Shown here: in pieces, positions 953 through 22,574 of the stretch
Layout: the number at the start of each line of letters is the position of its first letter
Position numbering within the stretch: position 1 is the stretch's first letter
Source of the DNA: Octopus sinensis
Lineage: Eukaryota
NCBI RefSeq assembly: GCF_006345805.1
Contig: NW_021836891.1
Coordinates: 1 to 22,613 of the forward strand
DNA length: 22,613 nucleotides
Direction of reading: 5' to 3'
Program-made: the position numbers and the translations under genes
The notes under the pieces: model-generated
The model's database searches: none
Seen by the model: only the letters and a program-made list of their open reading frames with translations
Told to the model about the DNA's origin: nothing

Positions 953-1367
953 ATGATAATGCATATATGCCTGAACATACGTATTCATAATATATACGTA
1001 TCATGTACAATATCTACAAACGTAATATGTATATAAATTATATATGTAAAATATATATATATATAATATTTATATAAATATATATATTATACATAATATA
1101 TGAACAAACACATGCTCGCGCGTGTGTGTATTTCTCGCGCTCGGAATTTCATTGCAGTTTCCAAAACAGTACACCTATAAAAGGACTTTTTTCCTCCAGA
1201 TGATAAACTGCAGCTTCTGGCTTTTCAACGACACATTAAATATGTCAGATAAATAAAATATTTTACTCTATAAATTCTTCTATTGTATGATAGAAATTTT
1301 AATTCAGCTGTTGTGGCCTCATTACAAATCAATGTCTCGTTTGTACATCGTCTGGATATCCTTCAGA

Positions 1368-1457
1368 CTGGTGGACTCGATTTAGTTTCGTAAGTAACAT
1401 ATGTTCGTGACAATGACATGTCGCAACTTCGACGAAATGTACCTCTTCAGTCTCCCA
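1368..1457 (-). ncRNA. Hammerhead-like motif, kind 1 (decayed)
   Basis: Minus strand: CTGAAGA (1450-1444), long stem II (GTACATTTCGT...ACGAACATATGTTAC), GAAAC (1389-1385), T-AAATCG-A, GTC (1376-1374). Core is intact but stem I pairs poorly. Confidence 0.5.
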
Positions 1458-1598
1458 TAACTTCCAAGGTGATCTCATTTCGACTAGCTTTGCAGTATAT
1501 TATGCCCAAAAAGTCTATTAAGGGATTTTATCGGACGATAAACTGCAGCTGTTGGCTTGTCAGGGATCCACTTACAACAAGTATGTTTTATATATCTA

Positions 1599-1983
1599 CT
1601 AGCAGTATCGCCCGGCGTTGCTCGGGTTTGTAAGGGAAATAACTATATAAGCATTTTTAGAGATGTAAAGTATAATAACCATCTCAATATGGCTAACCAC
1701 AAAGGGGGGGGTGTACTGTAGCTTTTTGCGTTCTGAGATTTAATAATAAAAAACAGTAATATAAAATATGCCAAAAATGCATTAATTATGGGAAGATTGA
1801 TGGTAATTTTTTTTTTAATCGTAGACTCATCGTAGACGCGCGCTAATACCCAGAAAGGCTCGATATGAATCACGACTATTAGACACCCGGTTTTGGTTAA
1901 ACTGCACCGCAAAATGTGGGAGTAGTTAGGAATCTAAATCGTAGGAGACAGACAGCACACATCCTCACTTTTATATATAAAGA
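1599..1983 (-). mobile_element. Non-autonomous Helitron, 385 bp
   Basis: Minus strand starts TCTTTATATATAAAAG and ends with hairpin CCCGAGCAACGCCGGG followed by CGATACTGCTAG; inserted between A and T with no target duplication. Confidence 0.88.
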
Positions 1984-2020
1984 TATAAAGCAAATAAGTA
2001 ACAAGGATTCCGGGTACTAG

Positions 2021-2107
2021 TACATTACGGCCGTTTCAGGCGGCTCCATTGAAACGATCAATGCAAGCATTCCATCCATTTGAATTACACCGCCTTTCTC
2101 TGAGGCA
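2021..2107 (-). ncRNA. Hammerhead-like motif, kind 2 (minimal type I, decayed core)
   Basis: Minus strand: TGCCT-CAGAGAA-AGGCGG...CCGCCT-GAAAC-GGCC-GTA-ATGTA. Stem II is closed perfectly and loop III is palindromic, but the CUGANGA box is mutated. Confidence 0.65.
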
Positions 2108-2446
2108 TAAGAACATATAGGCTTTTTAACACACAGAACACTCCATTATATTTTCTTTAGCAAATTTTTCACCAGAACTAGAGAATAAAAGAATTACATG
2201 ACTGTTGCTTTTATTGTAGCAGAATGAACTTAGGGAGAAAATACCCAACTATAATTTGGAGTGGCCAAAGAGAATAACAATGGGGGTCAGGCGATGTTAA
2301 TAAAGCTACGTTTATCTTTCTCCTTATCACAATCAAAAGATTTAATGCCGCTAGTATTCTAGGGCCACTAAAAGTTAAAACCACTTTATAGACGTTTTGG
2401 GTATAATATACTGCAAAGCTAAACGAAATGAGATCACCCTGGCAGT

Positions 2447-2540
2447 TACGGGTAACTGAAGAGGCACATTTCATAGTCGTTGCGACATGTCAATGTCACG
2501 AAATTATCATCAGCAACTAGACTTAAATGTCAAATCCCAA
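2447..2540 (+). ncRNA. Hammerhead-like motif, kind 1 (decayed)
   Basis: CTGAAGA at 2456-2462, hairpin ACATT/GTCG-ttg-CGAC/AATGT, GAAA at 2500-2503, GTC at 2529-2531; inverted homolog of 1368-1457. Confidence 0.4.
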
Positions 2541-2796
2541 TGGTTTTAATTCTTAATAGATGTAAAATACCAGCTGCATTAGATCTTTTGATTGTGATAA
2601 GGAGAAAGACAAATGTAGGTATATTACCATCTCTTGACCCTTATTGTTATTCTCTTCTGCCATTCCAAATTATATTTGGGGTATTTTCTCCCTAAGTTCT
2701 GCTACAATATTGCAAAAGGCATGTAATTCTTTTATTCTCTAGTTATAATGAAGAATTTGCTAAAAAAATTATAATGGTTTATCCTGTATGATCTTA

Positions 2797-2883
2797 TGCA
2801 TGCGAGGAAGGCGGTGCATTTCAAATTAATGTAATGTTTACACTGATCGATTAAAAGCAGTCGCCTGAAACGGCCGTAATGCA
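2797..2883 (+). ncRNA. Hammerhead-like motif, kind 2 (minimal type I, decayed core)
   Basis: TGCAT-GCGAGGA-AGGCGG...TCGCCT-GAAAC-GGCC-GTA-ATGCA. Stem I (TGCAT/ATGCA) is perfect; the core is 2 substitutions from CTGAGGA. Confidence 0.68.
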
Positions 2884-3153
2884 CTAATACATAGACATCC
2901 TTGTTACTTATTTGCTTTTTATTCAACTTACTTCAAGCTGTGAGGATAATACCGGACTGACTTGGTGACTCATCCTAAGTACCTAATTCAACTGAATCTT
3001 AATTATTTCTTGAGCGCGCGCGCGTATGTGTGCGTGTATGCAGTGGGGAAAAGTATGTGTGTGAGCATGTACGTATGTACTTATATATGTATGTATACAC
3101 GTGAATTTATAAAAATGTCTTCATATGTATCTATGAGGCAGGGAGTACATGAA

Positions 3154-4100: not shown

Positions 4101-4853
4101 CAACAAAGAGACACAGACCGACAGGGAAAAAGAAAAAGAGAAGAATAGTTCAATCCACAGGGTTTTCCATACAATCTGTAAATCCGAGGAAAATCGGATT
4201 AAATCACAATTCACTTTTGAACACCGTGAAAACAACTTTATTCGGGTTTAATATCTTCAAATAAATTTTACGTTTCATTATAGTTCTTTACACACACATA
4301 CACACACACTCACACACACGCACACATACACGAATTTACGAATGCCTCCGTGTTGCGTGTGTAAGAATGAGGTTAAAGACAGAGGGAGAGAGAGCGGGGA
4401 GGGATACCAGTTCATTAACGAATGTGACAATTGCAGTTTATTGGACTTGAAAGTGAAACTGACAATTTAACTTGTCCTAATAGTTTGTAAATTTTACGAG
4501 GACTGTTATGTAAATGTCAACTCTTAGTGAAACGGAATACATCATTACAACAATTGGCAATACGAATTAATATGTCTCTTCAGGCTACAAGCAAAAAGAT
4601 GAGTTTTCTTAAATGATTGTTAGATGTATGATATTTGAAATGGCCATATAATTAGCTCTGGATTCGCCTACCTTTGTACGGATAAAATGACTTTCCCTTA
4701 GAAAGGCAAACTATTATTACAAGTTGAAATTTTGAGGGAATTGAGGTTTATTATTATTGTCGTTGCAACCCGTTTCGACTTTATGAGGTTTATATTATTC
4801 TCTTGAAAGTTCTTGGACGCATTGAGAATTTTTCATATGTATGTTTAGGATCA

Positions 4854-5083
4854 TTTCTTTTTCTTTTATATGTTTCAGTCATTTGACCGCGACCATGCTG
4901 GAGCACCGCCTTTAGTCGAGCAAATCGACCCCAGGACAATCTTTATAAGCCTAGTACTTATTCTATCGGTCTCTATTGCCGAACCGCTAATTGACAGGGA
5001 CGTAAATACGCCAGCATCAGTTGTCAAGCGATGTTGTGGGGACAAACACAGACACACACACATATACACACACACACACACAT

Positions 5084-5124
<41 letters not shown>

Positions 5125-5278
5125 CGACGATCTTCTTTCAGTTTCCGTCTACCAAATCCACTGACAAGGCTTTGGTCGGCCCGAGGCTAGAGTAGAAGAT
5201 ACTTGCCCAAGGTGCCACGCAGTGGGACTGAACCCGGAACCATGTAGTTGGTAAGCAAGCTACTTACCACACAGCCAC
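4854..5278 (-). mobile_element. Composite tRNA-derived SINE (family B) with internal microsatellite
   Basis: Minus: head GTGGCTGTGTGGTAAG...GGTTCCGGGTTCAGTCCC (A/B boxes), body to GGAAACTGAAAGAAG, then (TA)n(TG)n, then GCGGTTCGGCAA...GATAGAATAAGTAC and tail GGCGGTGCTCCAGCATGG...TGACTGAAACA. Homologous to 8661, 15135 and 15905. Confidence 0.92.
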
Positions 5279-7162: not shown

Positions 7163-7364
7163 GCTTACGAACCACATGGTTCCGGGTTCAGTCCCACTGC
7201 GTGGCATCTTGGGCAAGTGTCTTCTACTTTAGCCTCGGGCCGACTAAAGCCTTGTGAGTGGACTTCGTAGACGGAAACTGAAAGAAACCTGTCGTATATA
7301 TGTATATGTGAGTGTGCGTTTGTGGTAAGCAAGCTACTTATCTCACAGCCACTCCTGCGCCTAT
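7163..7364. mobile_element. Rearranged family B SINE 5' half (7163-7322 plus, 7323-7364 minus)
   Basis: Plus part runs from GCTTACGAACCACATGG to the microsatellite. The missing first ~40 nt follow in reverse orientation (TGGTAAGCAAGCTACTTATCTCACAGCCACTCCTGCGCCTAT). Confidence 0.88.
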
Positions 7365-8100: not shown

Positions 8101-8660
8101 AAGTGAGTATATACAAGTATATATGTATGAAAGTATTTAGGATATATTTCAAATGTATCCCTGTTCTGAATTCATACCGGTATCTGTCAATGTGACAGGA
8201 TTCTATCGGTATAAACACGACAGCTCTGGGGAAATAGGGATATGCGAATCAGTTAGCGGATGTGTGTGTGTGTGTGTGTGTGTGTGTATCTGTGCATATG
8301 TAGATGAACTTGCTCTCGTGTAATGGGTTCACACACGAGTGTGTGTGTGTGTGTGAATGGTTACCTATTCGTTGTGATAGACATATAGAAATAGGTATTT
8401 GGGGAGAAAGAAGTAGATAGAGAAAGATAGTCTGAAATAGTGAGAGGAATACAGAGACAATTGCGAATGTTAAGGATGTATATCTATCTTTCAGTAAGCC
8501 TAACTAGGACTTAGTCGTCCATTTCTTTTAGATTGACAACGTAAGTACTTCGAAACAGAAATCAAGTCCATTGCAATAAGCATTCCCCTCTGCAATGTAA
8601 GGACGTGTGTGTATGAATGTATGTATGTATGTATGTATGTATATATGTATATATGTATGT

Positions 8661-8827
8661 ATAGGCGCAAGAGTGGCTGTATGGTAAGAAGCTTGCTTCC
8701 CAACCACAAGGTTGCAGATTCAGTTCGACAGGTCATGGCACCTTGGCAAGTGTCTTCTACTATAGCCTCGGACCGACCAAAGCCTTGTGATTGAATTTGG
8801 TAGAAGGAAACTGAAAGAATCTCTTCG

Positions 8828-15134: not shown

Positions 15135-15526
15135 CTCTTTTACTTTTTTCAGTCATTTGACTGTGGCCATGCTGGAGCACCGCCTTTAGTCGAGCGAATA
15201 GATCCCACGACTTATTATTTGTAAGCCTAGTACTTTCTCTATCGGTATCTTTTGCCGAACCGCTAAGTTACGGGGACGTAAACACACCAGCATCGGTTAT
15301 CAAGCGATGTTGGGGGGACAAACACAGACACACAAACATGTACACACACATACATAAATATACATATATACGACGGGCTTCTTTCAGTTTTCGTCTACCA
15401 AAACCACTCACAAGGCCCGAGGCTATAATAGAAGATACCTGCCCAAGCTGCCACGATGAGGGACTGAACCCGGAACCATGGGGTTGGTAAGCAAGTTACT
15501 TACCACACAGCCACCCCTGTGCCTAT
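15135..15526 (-). mobile_element. Family B SINE, full length
   Basis: High similarity to 4854-5278 over its length. Confidence 0.93.
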
Positions 15527-15904
15527 AGGCATATGTGCAAATGATTTTCATTTTGCCTCATAATTCAAGGAGAGAACAGGTGTTATGCTTTATATAAGAG
15601 TTGATAGAAATGCATATATTTCCACTTTGCACAGCAATGAGCTAACGATATATATAATTGCACACACACACACACACACACACATACGCATATATATGTG
15701 AATACTTATACACACACGCGTATATATACTTATATATATATATGTTTGCATGTGAGTGTGTTTGTGCATATGCGCGCGTGTGTGTGTGTATGCATGTGTA
15801 TGAGCAAATATGTATATTTGAGTGAGTCAAACAGCAATGAAATCTTCAGGATACTGCAGACACTCATTTAAAAGCCAGAACAAATACATTCAGGGAAATA
15901 AAAC

Positions 15905-16075
15905 ATAGACGCAGGAGTGGCTGTGTGGTAAGCACTTCGCTTACCAACCACATGATTTCGGGTTCGGTTCGACTGCACATGGCAACTTGAGTAAATGTCT
16001 TCTACTATAGCCGCAGGCCGAACAAATCCTTGTGGGTGGATTCGGTAGAGGTAAACTTAAAGAAACCTGACGTAA

Positions 16076-16124
<49 letters not shown>

Positions 16125-16320
16125 TGTGTGTCTGTGCTTGTCCCCCCAGCGTTGCTTGTTGGTGTGTTTACGTCCCCATGAGTTAGCGGTTCGGCAAAAG
16201 AAACCAATAGAATAAGTACCAGGCTTACAAAGATTAAGTCGTGGGGTCCGTTTGTTCGACTAAAGGCGATGCTCCAGCATGACCACAGTGAAATGACAGA
16301 AACAAATAAACAACAAAAGA
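15905..16320 (+). mobile_element. Family B SINE, full length
   Basis: ATAGACGCAGGAGTGGCTGTGTGGTAAG head, internal (TG)n, tail GGCGATGCTCCAGCATGACCACAG...GAAACAA. Confidence 0.92.
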
Positions 16321-16870
16321 ATATGATGGCCCCTAAGCCTAACAAAATGGCGGTTGGTCAGAATACGTTTGCTCTGCCGGAGCAGAGAAGGAAGAACAGC
16401 AACTCCAGTTATTGTTTTCTTTTCACAATCTATTTGCGAAACTATTTTAATCGCCATATTTTCGTTTCCATGGCTATTTGTATATAAATTATTTTTCTCT
16501 AAATGCCTCTAACAGTTGCCTTGACTATAATTACTGTTAAACACTTCTTTCTCTCGATATATCAAAGCTGTCTGCCTTTCTATCCATCCATTCATTTCTA
16601 TCTTCGTAAAGTTTGGCATCGGGCCATTCTATCCATATTCATACCCCTCTCACTCCGTATCTAACTGTTTATTCAGCCATCTAACACAACAGATATCTCG
16701 GCTGTTTATCTACTTATCTCATATCCTAACTTAGTGTTTTATCGTATCTATCTAAGCCGCTCTTTTTTTCTTTCGTTTTGTTGTCTCTGTCTCCCTTACT
16801 TTTCCTCTCAATAGGTATATATATATATCATCATCTATGTAACTCATCACTGCTTTTTCCTCTTCCTCTC

Positions 16871-17540: not shown

Positions 17541-18829
17541 CTGGGTCATCCCTTACATAATGCGGTTTTGCTATACTTATTTTATTTCTCAAAATTAAGG
17601 TAAACAAAGATCTTTTTTTAATCTAAAATATATTGTCCTTCATTTTCTACAATGCTCTTCCATCTATCTGGTAGATTTGCAAGACCCTTCTTCCAAAATT
17701 CACTTGTCCGTGACGAAAGATATTCCTCCAGTACTGATCTGACCTCGTCTACAGAATTCAATACTCCTCCAGTACTGTTCGGATCTCGTCTACAGAATTC
17801 ATATTTTTCCCGTCCAAACGATGTTGAAGACTGCGGAATAAATGATAATCAGTTGGGGCAATGTCCAGTGAATATGATGGGAGGGGCATCGTTTACCATT
17901 CAAACTACTCCAGCGTTTAGAATGTCATCCTCGCTGTATGTGGTCGAACATTATCCTAATGGAAGATCACCTATCGTCTTGAAACCAAAGATGGTCGTTT
18001 TTCTTCTAGCGCTGACTTAAGCCGCTGGTTTTAAGAGTTCAGTGTGGACTAAACCGTGCATATCCCACCAAACAGATAGCAACACCTTAAGTGGGTGAAG
18101 ACCTTTACTCTGGGTTGCCGGTGGTTCTCCTTTCACTACCCACTTAGACACTTGACATTTTTATGGAGAACCCATATCCTATCACATAGTCCCTCTTCGG
18201 TCCATAAAAGGTTCATTCGTGAGACTTGACAGCAAAGAAGAGCACACATTCAGTCTCTGCGAACGATCAGACTCGGAAAGTTTATGAGGAACCCATTGAC
18301 CCAATTTGTTGATTTTTTTTCCGACGACATGGAGGTGTCAATGAATAGTTGAATGATCAAATCCAAGCTTCTCTTCTAGTTTCTCAACAGGAAAAATGGG
18401 ATTTTATTCCACCAGGATTTGCAGGACATCCTCGACGAGCTCTACAGATCTTCCAGGATGAGGCTTGCCTTCTAAGCTGTAGTTCCTGCCTCGGAGTTTC
18501 TGAATCCACCGTTGACACTGACTCACGTTTATCGTCTGATCCCTATATACTACATTAATATTCCCCGCACTTTCCGTTCCCGCTTTGTTGCCTTTATTGA
18601 ACTCATAAAGCAAAATATGCCGAATATGCTCCTTTGTCATTTCCATTATAGCTTTGAAAAAATAACTTAAAATCGGCTCTGCACTCTTCAAAACTTACAC
18701 TAAGAATAAGGACAAGGTAAAATGACAACCTGCTTTTATAGCCAGTTGATGCAGGTAGTTTATCCCGTCTACCTCCGACTTTTAGTTCATGCAATTGAAA
18801 ACTCCCGCATTATTTATGACATGAACCAA
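17541..18829 (-). mobile_element. Tc1/mariner (mariner, DD34D-type) transposon, full length, 1289 bp
   Basis: TA at 17539-17540 and 18830-18831; TIRs CTGGGTCATCCCTTACATAATGCGG and reverse-complement TTGGTTCATGTCATAAATAATGCGG. Confidence 0.93.
17618..18646 (-). pseudogene. Mariner transposase pseudogene
   Basis: MEMTKEHIRHILLYEF HTH start, QWVPHKLSE, H*DNVRPH, YSLDIAPTDYHL and C-terminal LPDRWKSIVENEGQYILD*; internal stops and frameshifts. Confidence 0.92.
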
Positions 18830-21569: not shown

Positions 21570-22574
21570 TATGTGTGTGTGTATATGTGTGTGTGCGCGC
21601 GCAAACGTTCGGGTGCGCGGTCATGTACAGATGCGCACACTCGCATCAATATACACATGCACGCAAAACGATATGAACATATCTGCACACCCACATATAA
21701 AAGTATATACTTGCACATGCCGTCCCTTCCTACTTCCTCCACCATCCAACAACTTGACCGATTTCCAATGGCCACTTGCTCTATTTCCTGTCCTCCTCGA
21801 GATCAATTTCATGCTCACTATGCTGTATTTTTCAGCTAACTCTTACCGATATACTAATATCAAACCACGATACCGTCTGAGCTTCCTCGGCCATCGCAGT
21901 ACACGTTACGGTAATAACAATCAACTTCTGTCATTGAAATTCGAAATGGCTGACGACTAGCATCACGCTTGAAACTCGAGAGTAGCAACGAATATTAATC
22001 AAACTGTTTTGATTCATACATGTAACTCCCAATAAATTGGTTGAGTGCCCTTCTTTCATTTGTCCACTCACTCGTGTGTGTGAGTGTGCGTAGCTATGTT
22101 TGCGCCGCTTTGTCTTTGTAGGTAGATATATATATTTGTAAGTCTCATAAGAACGACGGCACCGTCAAAATATACGATGTATATTCATCATTTTTAGACT
22201 TGTAACACACACGCGCGCACAAACACAGACACACGCACAAACGTGCACAAAGACACACACACACACATGCACGCATACCCACATATGCATATACACATAA
22301 ACACAAACATACACAAGACTAGCCTTTCGAACATTTATGTCACCTGGAATCGCAGACGCCATCTTGAATGGTCATAACTAAAGTTAAGATGGCTTCATCT
22401 CTCATCCCATCACATATATTTCACTTCAATTTCCCTCACTTTCCAATTGGTTGTTTTTGTACGACCATCCAACCGCTTCGTGCGCACGCGCATGTGATGC
22501 CTGTATGTGTGTGCATATATAACATAAATTCATGGTCATATTCCAATATGTGAATTCGATATTACTCGCAAGAC

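Follow-up and report, generated by a model that had tools for sequence, protein, structure and literature searches.

The region at 1150–2925 of the window, that is, of the whole 22,613-nucleotide stretch of Octopus sinensis DNA analysed, is three distinct things and not one array: an inverted pair of multicopy arms, a single-copy flank with its duplicate, and a Helitron-like passenger. With moderate confidence, the locus can be traced to a single old insertion of an end module of Penelope type (family B), in which two head-to-head copies surround an inverted copy of the flank. On this reading, the insertion is decayed and of an ordinary Penelope-type kind. The making of the head-to-head Penelope layout is described as unsettled (PMC3846280; PMC11167929), and the locus may serve as a worked example, in which a spacer source lying 70 bp from the insertion site suggests the order in which strands were switched. 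A further point of interest is that an abundant repeat family carries a hammerhead-shaped motif.

Organization of the locus

The features of the locus are as follows.

1144–1255, no strand assigned: partial direct repeat (the "335-bp period"), a copy of 1482–1596; old, part of the flank and not of family B
1399–1530, minus: A', single-copy flank segment and putative spacer donor, with a decayed hammerhead-like motif (CTGAAGA at 1450–1444)
1599–1983, minus: non-autonomous Helitron-like element at the left junction, in a short TA tract; 5' TC, 3' hairpin, CTAG
1984–2383, minus: B', left arm, an inverted family B copy equivalent to 2541–2922, in which the outermost 90 bp found in the right arm are missing
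2021–2107, minus: B' hammerhead-shaped motif with CAGAGAA core at 2102–2096 and 7-bp stem II; predicted inactive
2376–2383, no strand assigned: head-to-head junction, 8 bases with which A starts and which also form the inner end of B'
2376–2508, plus: A, the spacer, an inverted copy of flank 1399–1530, with CTGAAGA core at 2456
2521–3010, plus: B, right arm, a copy of the multicopy family; inner limit of about 2521 taken from joints in other copies
2797–2883, plus: B hammerhead-shaped motif with GCGAGGA core at 2802 and GAAA at 2867; predicted inactive

Self-comparison recovers the inverted repeats around a junction near 2360–2383 that the initial annotation had described. In the B'/B pair, 2383→1984 aligns with 2541–2922 at 318 of 402 columns (317/379, or 84% identity), with a score of 467 against a shuffle maximum of 38, and in the A'/A pair, 1404–1530 aligns with 2376–2502 (86%, E 6e-37), extendable to 1399–1530 versus 2376–2507 with 112 of 132 ungapped positions identical (85%). 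Both duplications are equally diverged (15–16%), the inner ends of the B arms lie at most about 20 bp apart, and a TAAAA microhomology at the head-to-head junction is common to donor and arm. This junction is spanned by one contig each of run X2 (2231–2601, 2 differences) and run X7 (2217–2601, 3 differences), so it is no assembly artefact. Both inner junctions are spanned by X2 and X7 contigs with 2–3 differences, the flank–Helitron junction in X7 and the Helitron–B' junction in X2, and no contig runs over the whole stretch.

The two sides of the junction differ in what follows the repeated segments. On the right, B comes after A; on the left, the sequence after A' is unrelated (score 33, shuffle mean 30.6), and on these scores the segment after A' was rejected as a decayed B start. 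Similarly, B continues into its own tail of about 90 bp on the right, whereas this tail is absent from the left arm and, with a score of 25.5 against a shuffle mean of 23.6, aligns with nothing on the far side of the Helitron. None of the junctions (A–B, B–x, A–y) occurs twice within the window, and Tandem Repeats Finder lists no array in 1150–2925. The 335-bp direct period once proposed to reach back to about 1150 comes down to a single incomplete repeat, about 112 bp long, of 1144–1255 versus 1482–1596 (76 of 123 columns, score 76 against a maximum of 40.5 over 300 shuffles), which forms no array. The segment 1150–1598 was also considered as a coding repeat and rejected, as its gaps do not keep the frame and its Pfam search is blank. 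The lack of an open reading frame is borne out, given that none of 18 read-through frames in B, A and the flank has a Pfam match under E 0.05. No target duplication was found at the junctions, the sole shared word of at least 6 bases lying away from them. The repeat does not end at 2925, as had been supposed: family cover continues to 2990, the end of the compared stretch, and the outer limit of the right arm would lie near 3010, where a microsatellite begins.

The spacer is a duplicate of the left flank

To establish copy status, contigs from four of 24 listed runs were aligned to the region at 80% likeness or more; X1 and X3–X6, which have high shares, are outside these four. The X2 depth is 45 at 2442–2503 (A) and 0–28 at 1326–1573 (flank), and X15 gives 0; in all four runs compared, A and 1326–1573 have single-locus depth or are uncovered. 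Contigs that follow B as far as 2385–2386 (records 17 and 20 of X2, record 24 of X7) run on for another 128–197 letters, none of which match A, and A occurs in no family B contig of the four runs among relatives at least 80% alike. Because A is single-locus or uncovered and the B contigs bypass it, A is a local duplicate of the flank that lies outside family B, as far as relatives at least 80% alike are concerned.

The likeness of A to its donor fades at 2502–2508, with 15–18 of 20 positions identical through 2509 and 10 of 20 thereafter, and the end of the copy coincides with the predicted cut site of the A motif (after 2508). Within the flank, 1202–1263 has low multi-locus depth in X2 (209) and X15 (380), next to neighbours that are single-copy or uncovered, a hint that the left flank is itself an older repeat.

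Family B

Against about 45 for a single locus, the X2 depth over B ranges from 800 to 43,000. Summed over both arms, in single-locus units and from the inner to the outer end, depth runs 91/155/412/961/751 in X2 and 63/126/378/971/888 in X15, a rough measure that is no copy number and of which the shape alone is used. This rise of roughly tenfold toward the outer end in both runs fits copies cut short at the inner (5') end. Both arms appear to have decayed independently from one consensus, since the family letter is carried by the other arm at all 17 comparable majority differences (4 more fall in a gap; 40 of 156 rows).

Head-to-head joints also occur elsewhere in the family, at least four among 15 of 126 joints. 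At another such locus (X2 record 19), 2767→2611 is followed by 259 other letters and then by the arm in forward orientation, with the same joint in X7, and strand-changing joints within one arm occur at 2521/2561, 2521/2726 and 2818/2872. As a side observation, 2913–2922, where the left arm ends, is a possible recurrent boundary of family B: in another contig of X2, 2913 is directly followed by the end of a Helitron, and loose ends before 2917 are seen in 16 records of X15.

These data bear on an unlikely alternative, in which a DNA transposon of fold-back or Mutator-like type has B as its long terminal inverted repeat, this copy lost its interior and gained flank DNA in gap repair, and the hairpin is no ribozyme. 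The arms face each other, the inner positions of inverted junctions vary among other loci, the outer end has the greatest depth, and the hammerhead core is non-canonical, all of which agree with it. Nevertheless, the fixed terminal ends and target duplications expected of a transposon with terminal inverted repeats or a MITE, named by the initial annotation as evidence against its reading, are not seen at this locus: one arm reaches about 90 bp further out than the other, the part that is missing does not turn up beyond the Helitron that disturbs the left end, and no target duplication was found. Moreover, a spacer captured from the immediate flank would be unexpected for a transposed copy.

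Contigs of family B are also present in X13 (record 4, depth 110), which is RNA by guess only and therefore shows neither transcription nor circles; no RNA data set was listed among those matching the region. An exact-motif scan of viral contigs gave no match to the two B motifs or to the Helitron end, and three exact matches in metagenome contigs were rejected as chance because likeness stops at 19–23 bases. A profile of the frame open in both arms was compared with 1.84 billion proteins and matched one, a tandem-repeat translation of 817 aa whose score sums seven stretches, which was rejected as spurious. Neither reverse transcriptase nor GIY-YIG was detected in the 18 read-through frames or in 150 of the 247 stop-free stretches of at least 45 aa in the window.

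Hammerhead-shaped motifs

Four hammerhead-like motifs had been reported. Their cores are indeed found at +2456, +2802, −2102 and −1450, with spacings of 346 on the right and, once the Helitron is removed, 267 on the left (652 − 385), as first given. In a scan of 1100–3000 with a structure descriptor allowing up to 3 mismatches and requiring 4-bp stems, the B motifs are the only two to pass on their own letters, and both have 2 mismatches in the core. The search against Rfam proposed in the initial annotation went against the motifs: no hammerhead family matches at E≤10 in 1130–3015 or at E≤1 in the whole window, and what does match is microsatellite-driven microRNA and weak snoRNA only.

Both B motifs have the three-stem type I topology, with GAAA and UH present and stem I pairing at 5/5 and 4/5 positions. 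The plus-strand motif consists of stem I TGCAT/ATGCA, a 7-bp stem II extended by a long hairpin, a palindromic CGGCCG and TA, with a predicted cut after 2878, and the centroid fold forms stems I and II; the minus-strand motif has a 7-bp stem II, GAAA, the palindromic CGGCCG and TA, with a predicted cut after 2026. In place of CUGANGA, the cores of the two arms read GCGAGGA and CAGAGAA, and the pooled letters of B and B' still leave one core mismatch (C or A at U4). Stem II is closed by A-U in both arms, and the folding energy is ordinary (z −0.3 and −0.6). A G-C pair of stem II is restored by the family majority letter at 2861. The motifs of these two arms are shaped like hammerheads and predicted to be inactive. 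The U4C change is reported to lower hammerhead activity in vitro and yet to permit viroid infectivity (PMC3088659). An intron-like stretch of 62 nt, judged by eye, starts at the cleavage triplet of the B motif (2876–2937, plus strand), with a CTAAT word and a pyrimidine tract between GT at 2876 and AG at 2936–2937.

With a 7-bp stem II, a stem I of at least 4 and a palindromic stem III, limits chosen after the motif was seen, the B motif is matched by none of 400 dinucleotide shuffles of 2521–3010. These counts are relevant to another explanation, rather improbable in our judgement, according to which B is the 3' end of another retroposon (a SINE or LINE tail) inverted by twin priming, and the hammerhead shape is a chance reading of a hairpin. 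The depth gradient fits it equally, a T-rich stretch at the end of the left arm adjoins the TA tract, and the 25 of 400 shuffles that match without the palindrome rule, together with the blank Rfam result, are in its favor. Twin priming of L1, however, yields non-overlapping pieces, whereas the arms here overlap over 400 bp; in addition, no poly(A) or simple-repeat tail lies inside the family cover, and with the palindrome included no shuffle reproduces the motif.

The A motifs have an exact CTGAAGA core and fail singly in both copies at a stem II of at least 4 bp; the A' motif alone has 2 mismatches and just 2 contiguous stem II pairs. CTGANGA followed by GAA is common by chance, being found in 158 of 1000 shuffles of the flank. 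When the letters of A and A' are pooled, a minimal hammerhead fits with no core mismatch, a bulged base, a G-C closure, 7 stem II pairs with one bulge and stem I at 5/5, and none of 1500 column shuffles does as well, in a test that borrows letters from 2503–2513, where homology fades, and uses limits tuned to A. A looser setting gave a chance match on the opposite strand. Taken together, the odds that A is an older, decayed hammerhead are about even. Another core-like word, the minus-strand CTGATGA at 2513, was rejected because the donor copy does not keep it.

It had been proposed that the locus is a relic of a unit alternating two different ribozymes, which in the form of a retrozyme-like unit of about 610 nt would carry A and B and yield circles. 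The order A–B on the right and B–A on the left, all in sense, and the fit of the pooled A letters are as this proposal predicts. Since no junction is repeated and A lies outside the family, the alternating unit is without support, and it failed already at 80% likeness, A being absent from the family contigs of all four runs. Furthermore, the left arm lacks the most abundant part of the family, there is no tandem array, and the pooled A test draws on columns at or past the end of homology. We consider it very improbable.

The Helitron passenger

The Helitron noticed within the region is confirmed by its ends, A|TC...CTAG|T at 1983/1599; it entered a short TA tract, with A on one side and T on the other. 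Helitrons are defined by a 5' TC, a 3' hairpin with CTAG and insertion between A and T without target site duplication. The ends, the A/T insertion, the lack of a duplication and head-to-tail joints elsewhere (1983→1598) all match non-autonomous Helitrons, a likeness limited to the 385-bp passenger at 1599–1983. Its summed depth reaches 0.7–7 million in X2. The element is very abundant in X2 and X7 and nearly absent from X15, where family B is equally deep; thus, the Helitron burst looks younger than B.

A single Penelope-type insertion as the preferred explanation

In the reading that we prefer, one insertion would account for both arms and the spacer. A Penelope enzyme would nick the TA/microsatellite-rich site and, primed at the right target end, reverse transcribe B from its outer end (about 3010) inward to about 2521. 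The new strand would then switch to the left flank, copy about 130 bp, fold back on its own cDNA via the TAAAA microhomology near the earlier stop, and copy B again outward to about 2922, before being joined to the TA tract at 1598. The Helitron would have arrived after the insertion, and both arms would then have decayed. The family B motif would represent the hammerhead of a pLTR, cleaving as a dimer through the palindromic stem III. The fold-back mechanism would account for two properties of the left arm, which covers no part of B that the right arm lacks and starts near the inner end of the right arm; the order of strand switches is what we infer from this arrangement. In a variant of the mechanism, both target ends would prime synthesis and repair would add the spacer, giving an identical product, and PAc is reported to nick and extend both strands at AT-rich DNA in vitro (PMC11167929).

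For the Penelope reading count the head-to-head layout, the depth gradient, the other head-to-head loci, the shuffles under the palindrome rule and the descent of both arms from one consensus. Against it count the lack of a Penelope protein in the 18 read-through frames and the 150 of 247 stop-free stretches, the lack of an Rfam match, the non-canonical B cores, the A-U closure of stem II, the ordinary folding energy and the one-sided extension of about 90 bp, and also the fact that opposite-strand joints with varying inner ends are expected of a DNA transposon with long terminal inverted repeats as well. On balance, the insertion of B is best read as working like that of a Penelope end module, and family B would be a member of the Penelope group whose canonical core is lacking in these two copies. 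The earlier suggestion of a relic of a Penelope-dependent element or a retrozyme accordingly divides: a Penelope-type head-to-head insertion is the best account of the B arms, and a tandem retrozyme is unsupported.

The same arms could, improbably, stem from two separate adjacent insertions of one Penelope-type family, between which the flank was copied by later repair. PAc nicks DNA of its own ORF–pLTR junction in vitro (PMC11167929), and equal divergence from the consensus is also expected if both copies arose in one burst. However, the equal divergence of A/A' and B/B', the coincidence of the inner ends within about 20 bp and the microhomology overlap of A and B' would then be three coincidences, which a single event explains.

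A joint proposal would make the spacer the footprint of a genomic hammerhead that had cut itself in vivo, and family B a family that spread with a non-canonical hammerhead. A would be an older ribozyme relic, its copy ending at the predicted cut site at 2508, and the Penelope reverse transcriptase would jump to a nascent RNA made locally, at the 3' end left by self-cleavage, before folding back, while family B would have spread to hundreds of loci with U4 changed and an A-U pair closing the extended stem II. The two parts together strike us as quite doubtful.

Other features of the window

Core-plus-GAAA matches number 5 in the window against 0.88 expected. One hammerhead-like string, at 21945–21995 on the plus strand, has an exact CTGACGA, a short stem, GAAA and a palindromic CTCGAG, with neither UH nor a clear stem I, and it may be another decayed Penelope end. 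At 18020–18694 on the minus strand lies a broken mariner transposase with HTH_48 (E 2e-15) in one frame and Transposase_1 (E 3e-13) in another, the sole protein matches among the 150 of 247 stop-free stretches. Two other short repeats are present in several copies, 67–93% alike and in both orientations, at 4850–5265, 7163–7307, 8660–8827, 15136–15527 and 15953–16327.

Comparison with known systems

For hammerhead ribozymes in octopus, Octopus bimaculoides or cephalopods, literature searches listed PMC8557442 only. In Octopus vulgaris, 31 recently active Penelope-like families are reported (PMC13282606); the words "hammerhead" and "ribozyme" are absent from the main text of that paper, whose supplement and Zenodo library may hold family B.

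Non-LTR retrozymes of animals, which are head-to-tail tandems (PMC7229834; 10.64898/2026.07.22.740005), resemble family B in being non-coding, AT-rich and a few hundred bases long, in carrying a type I hammerhead-like motif and in a likely derivation from Penelope-like elements (PLEs). In contrast to them, the locus holds no head-to-tail tandem of 150–450-bp hammerhead-bearing units, an arrangement that was looked for, and the 2026 preprint accepts only loci in which complete motifs occur in two consecutive units (10.64898/2026.07.22.740005).

The pLTRs of metazoan PLEs are described as bearing minimal hammerheads on opposite strands, 100–700 bp apart, with a palindromic helix III, and their consensus has a stem II closed by G10.1-C11.1 (PMC4209133). 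Family B shares with these minimal type I hammerheads the topology, a stem I of 4–5 bp, a stem II of 7 bp and the palindromic helix III, and its motifs likewise lie on opposite strands, 700 bp apart. It differs from them in a core with 2 mismatches per arm (C at U4 in the best pooled version), in the A-U closure of stem II and in a loop II of 44 nt that forms a further hairpin.

An inverted, 5'-truncated copy with a one-sided tail is typical of PLE insertions (PMC8557442), the one-sided extension being about 90 bp here versus 30–40 bp for the published tail. In rotifers, Penelopes are reported to have head-to-head inverted pLTRs, host DNA captured between them, microhomology junctions without target site duplication, and self-priming (PMC3846280). 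Compared with Pen1–Pen3a of Adineta vaga, the locus here is without an open reading frame and with no autonomous partner identified, and its captured DNA is the immediate flank, in inverted orientation. Despite these differences, it shares with Pen1–Pen3a the head-to-head arms, a short junction overlap and host DNA between the pLTRs (PMC3846280; layout, PMC8557442), as well as a microhomology junction without target site duplication, extension at one end and an AT-rich target (PMC3846280).
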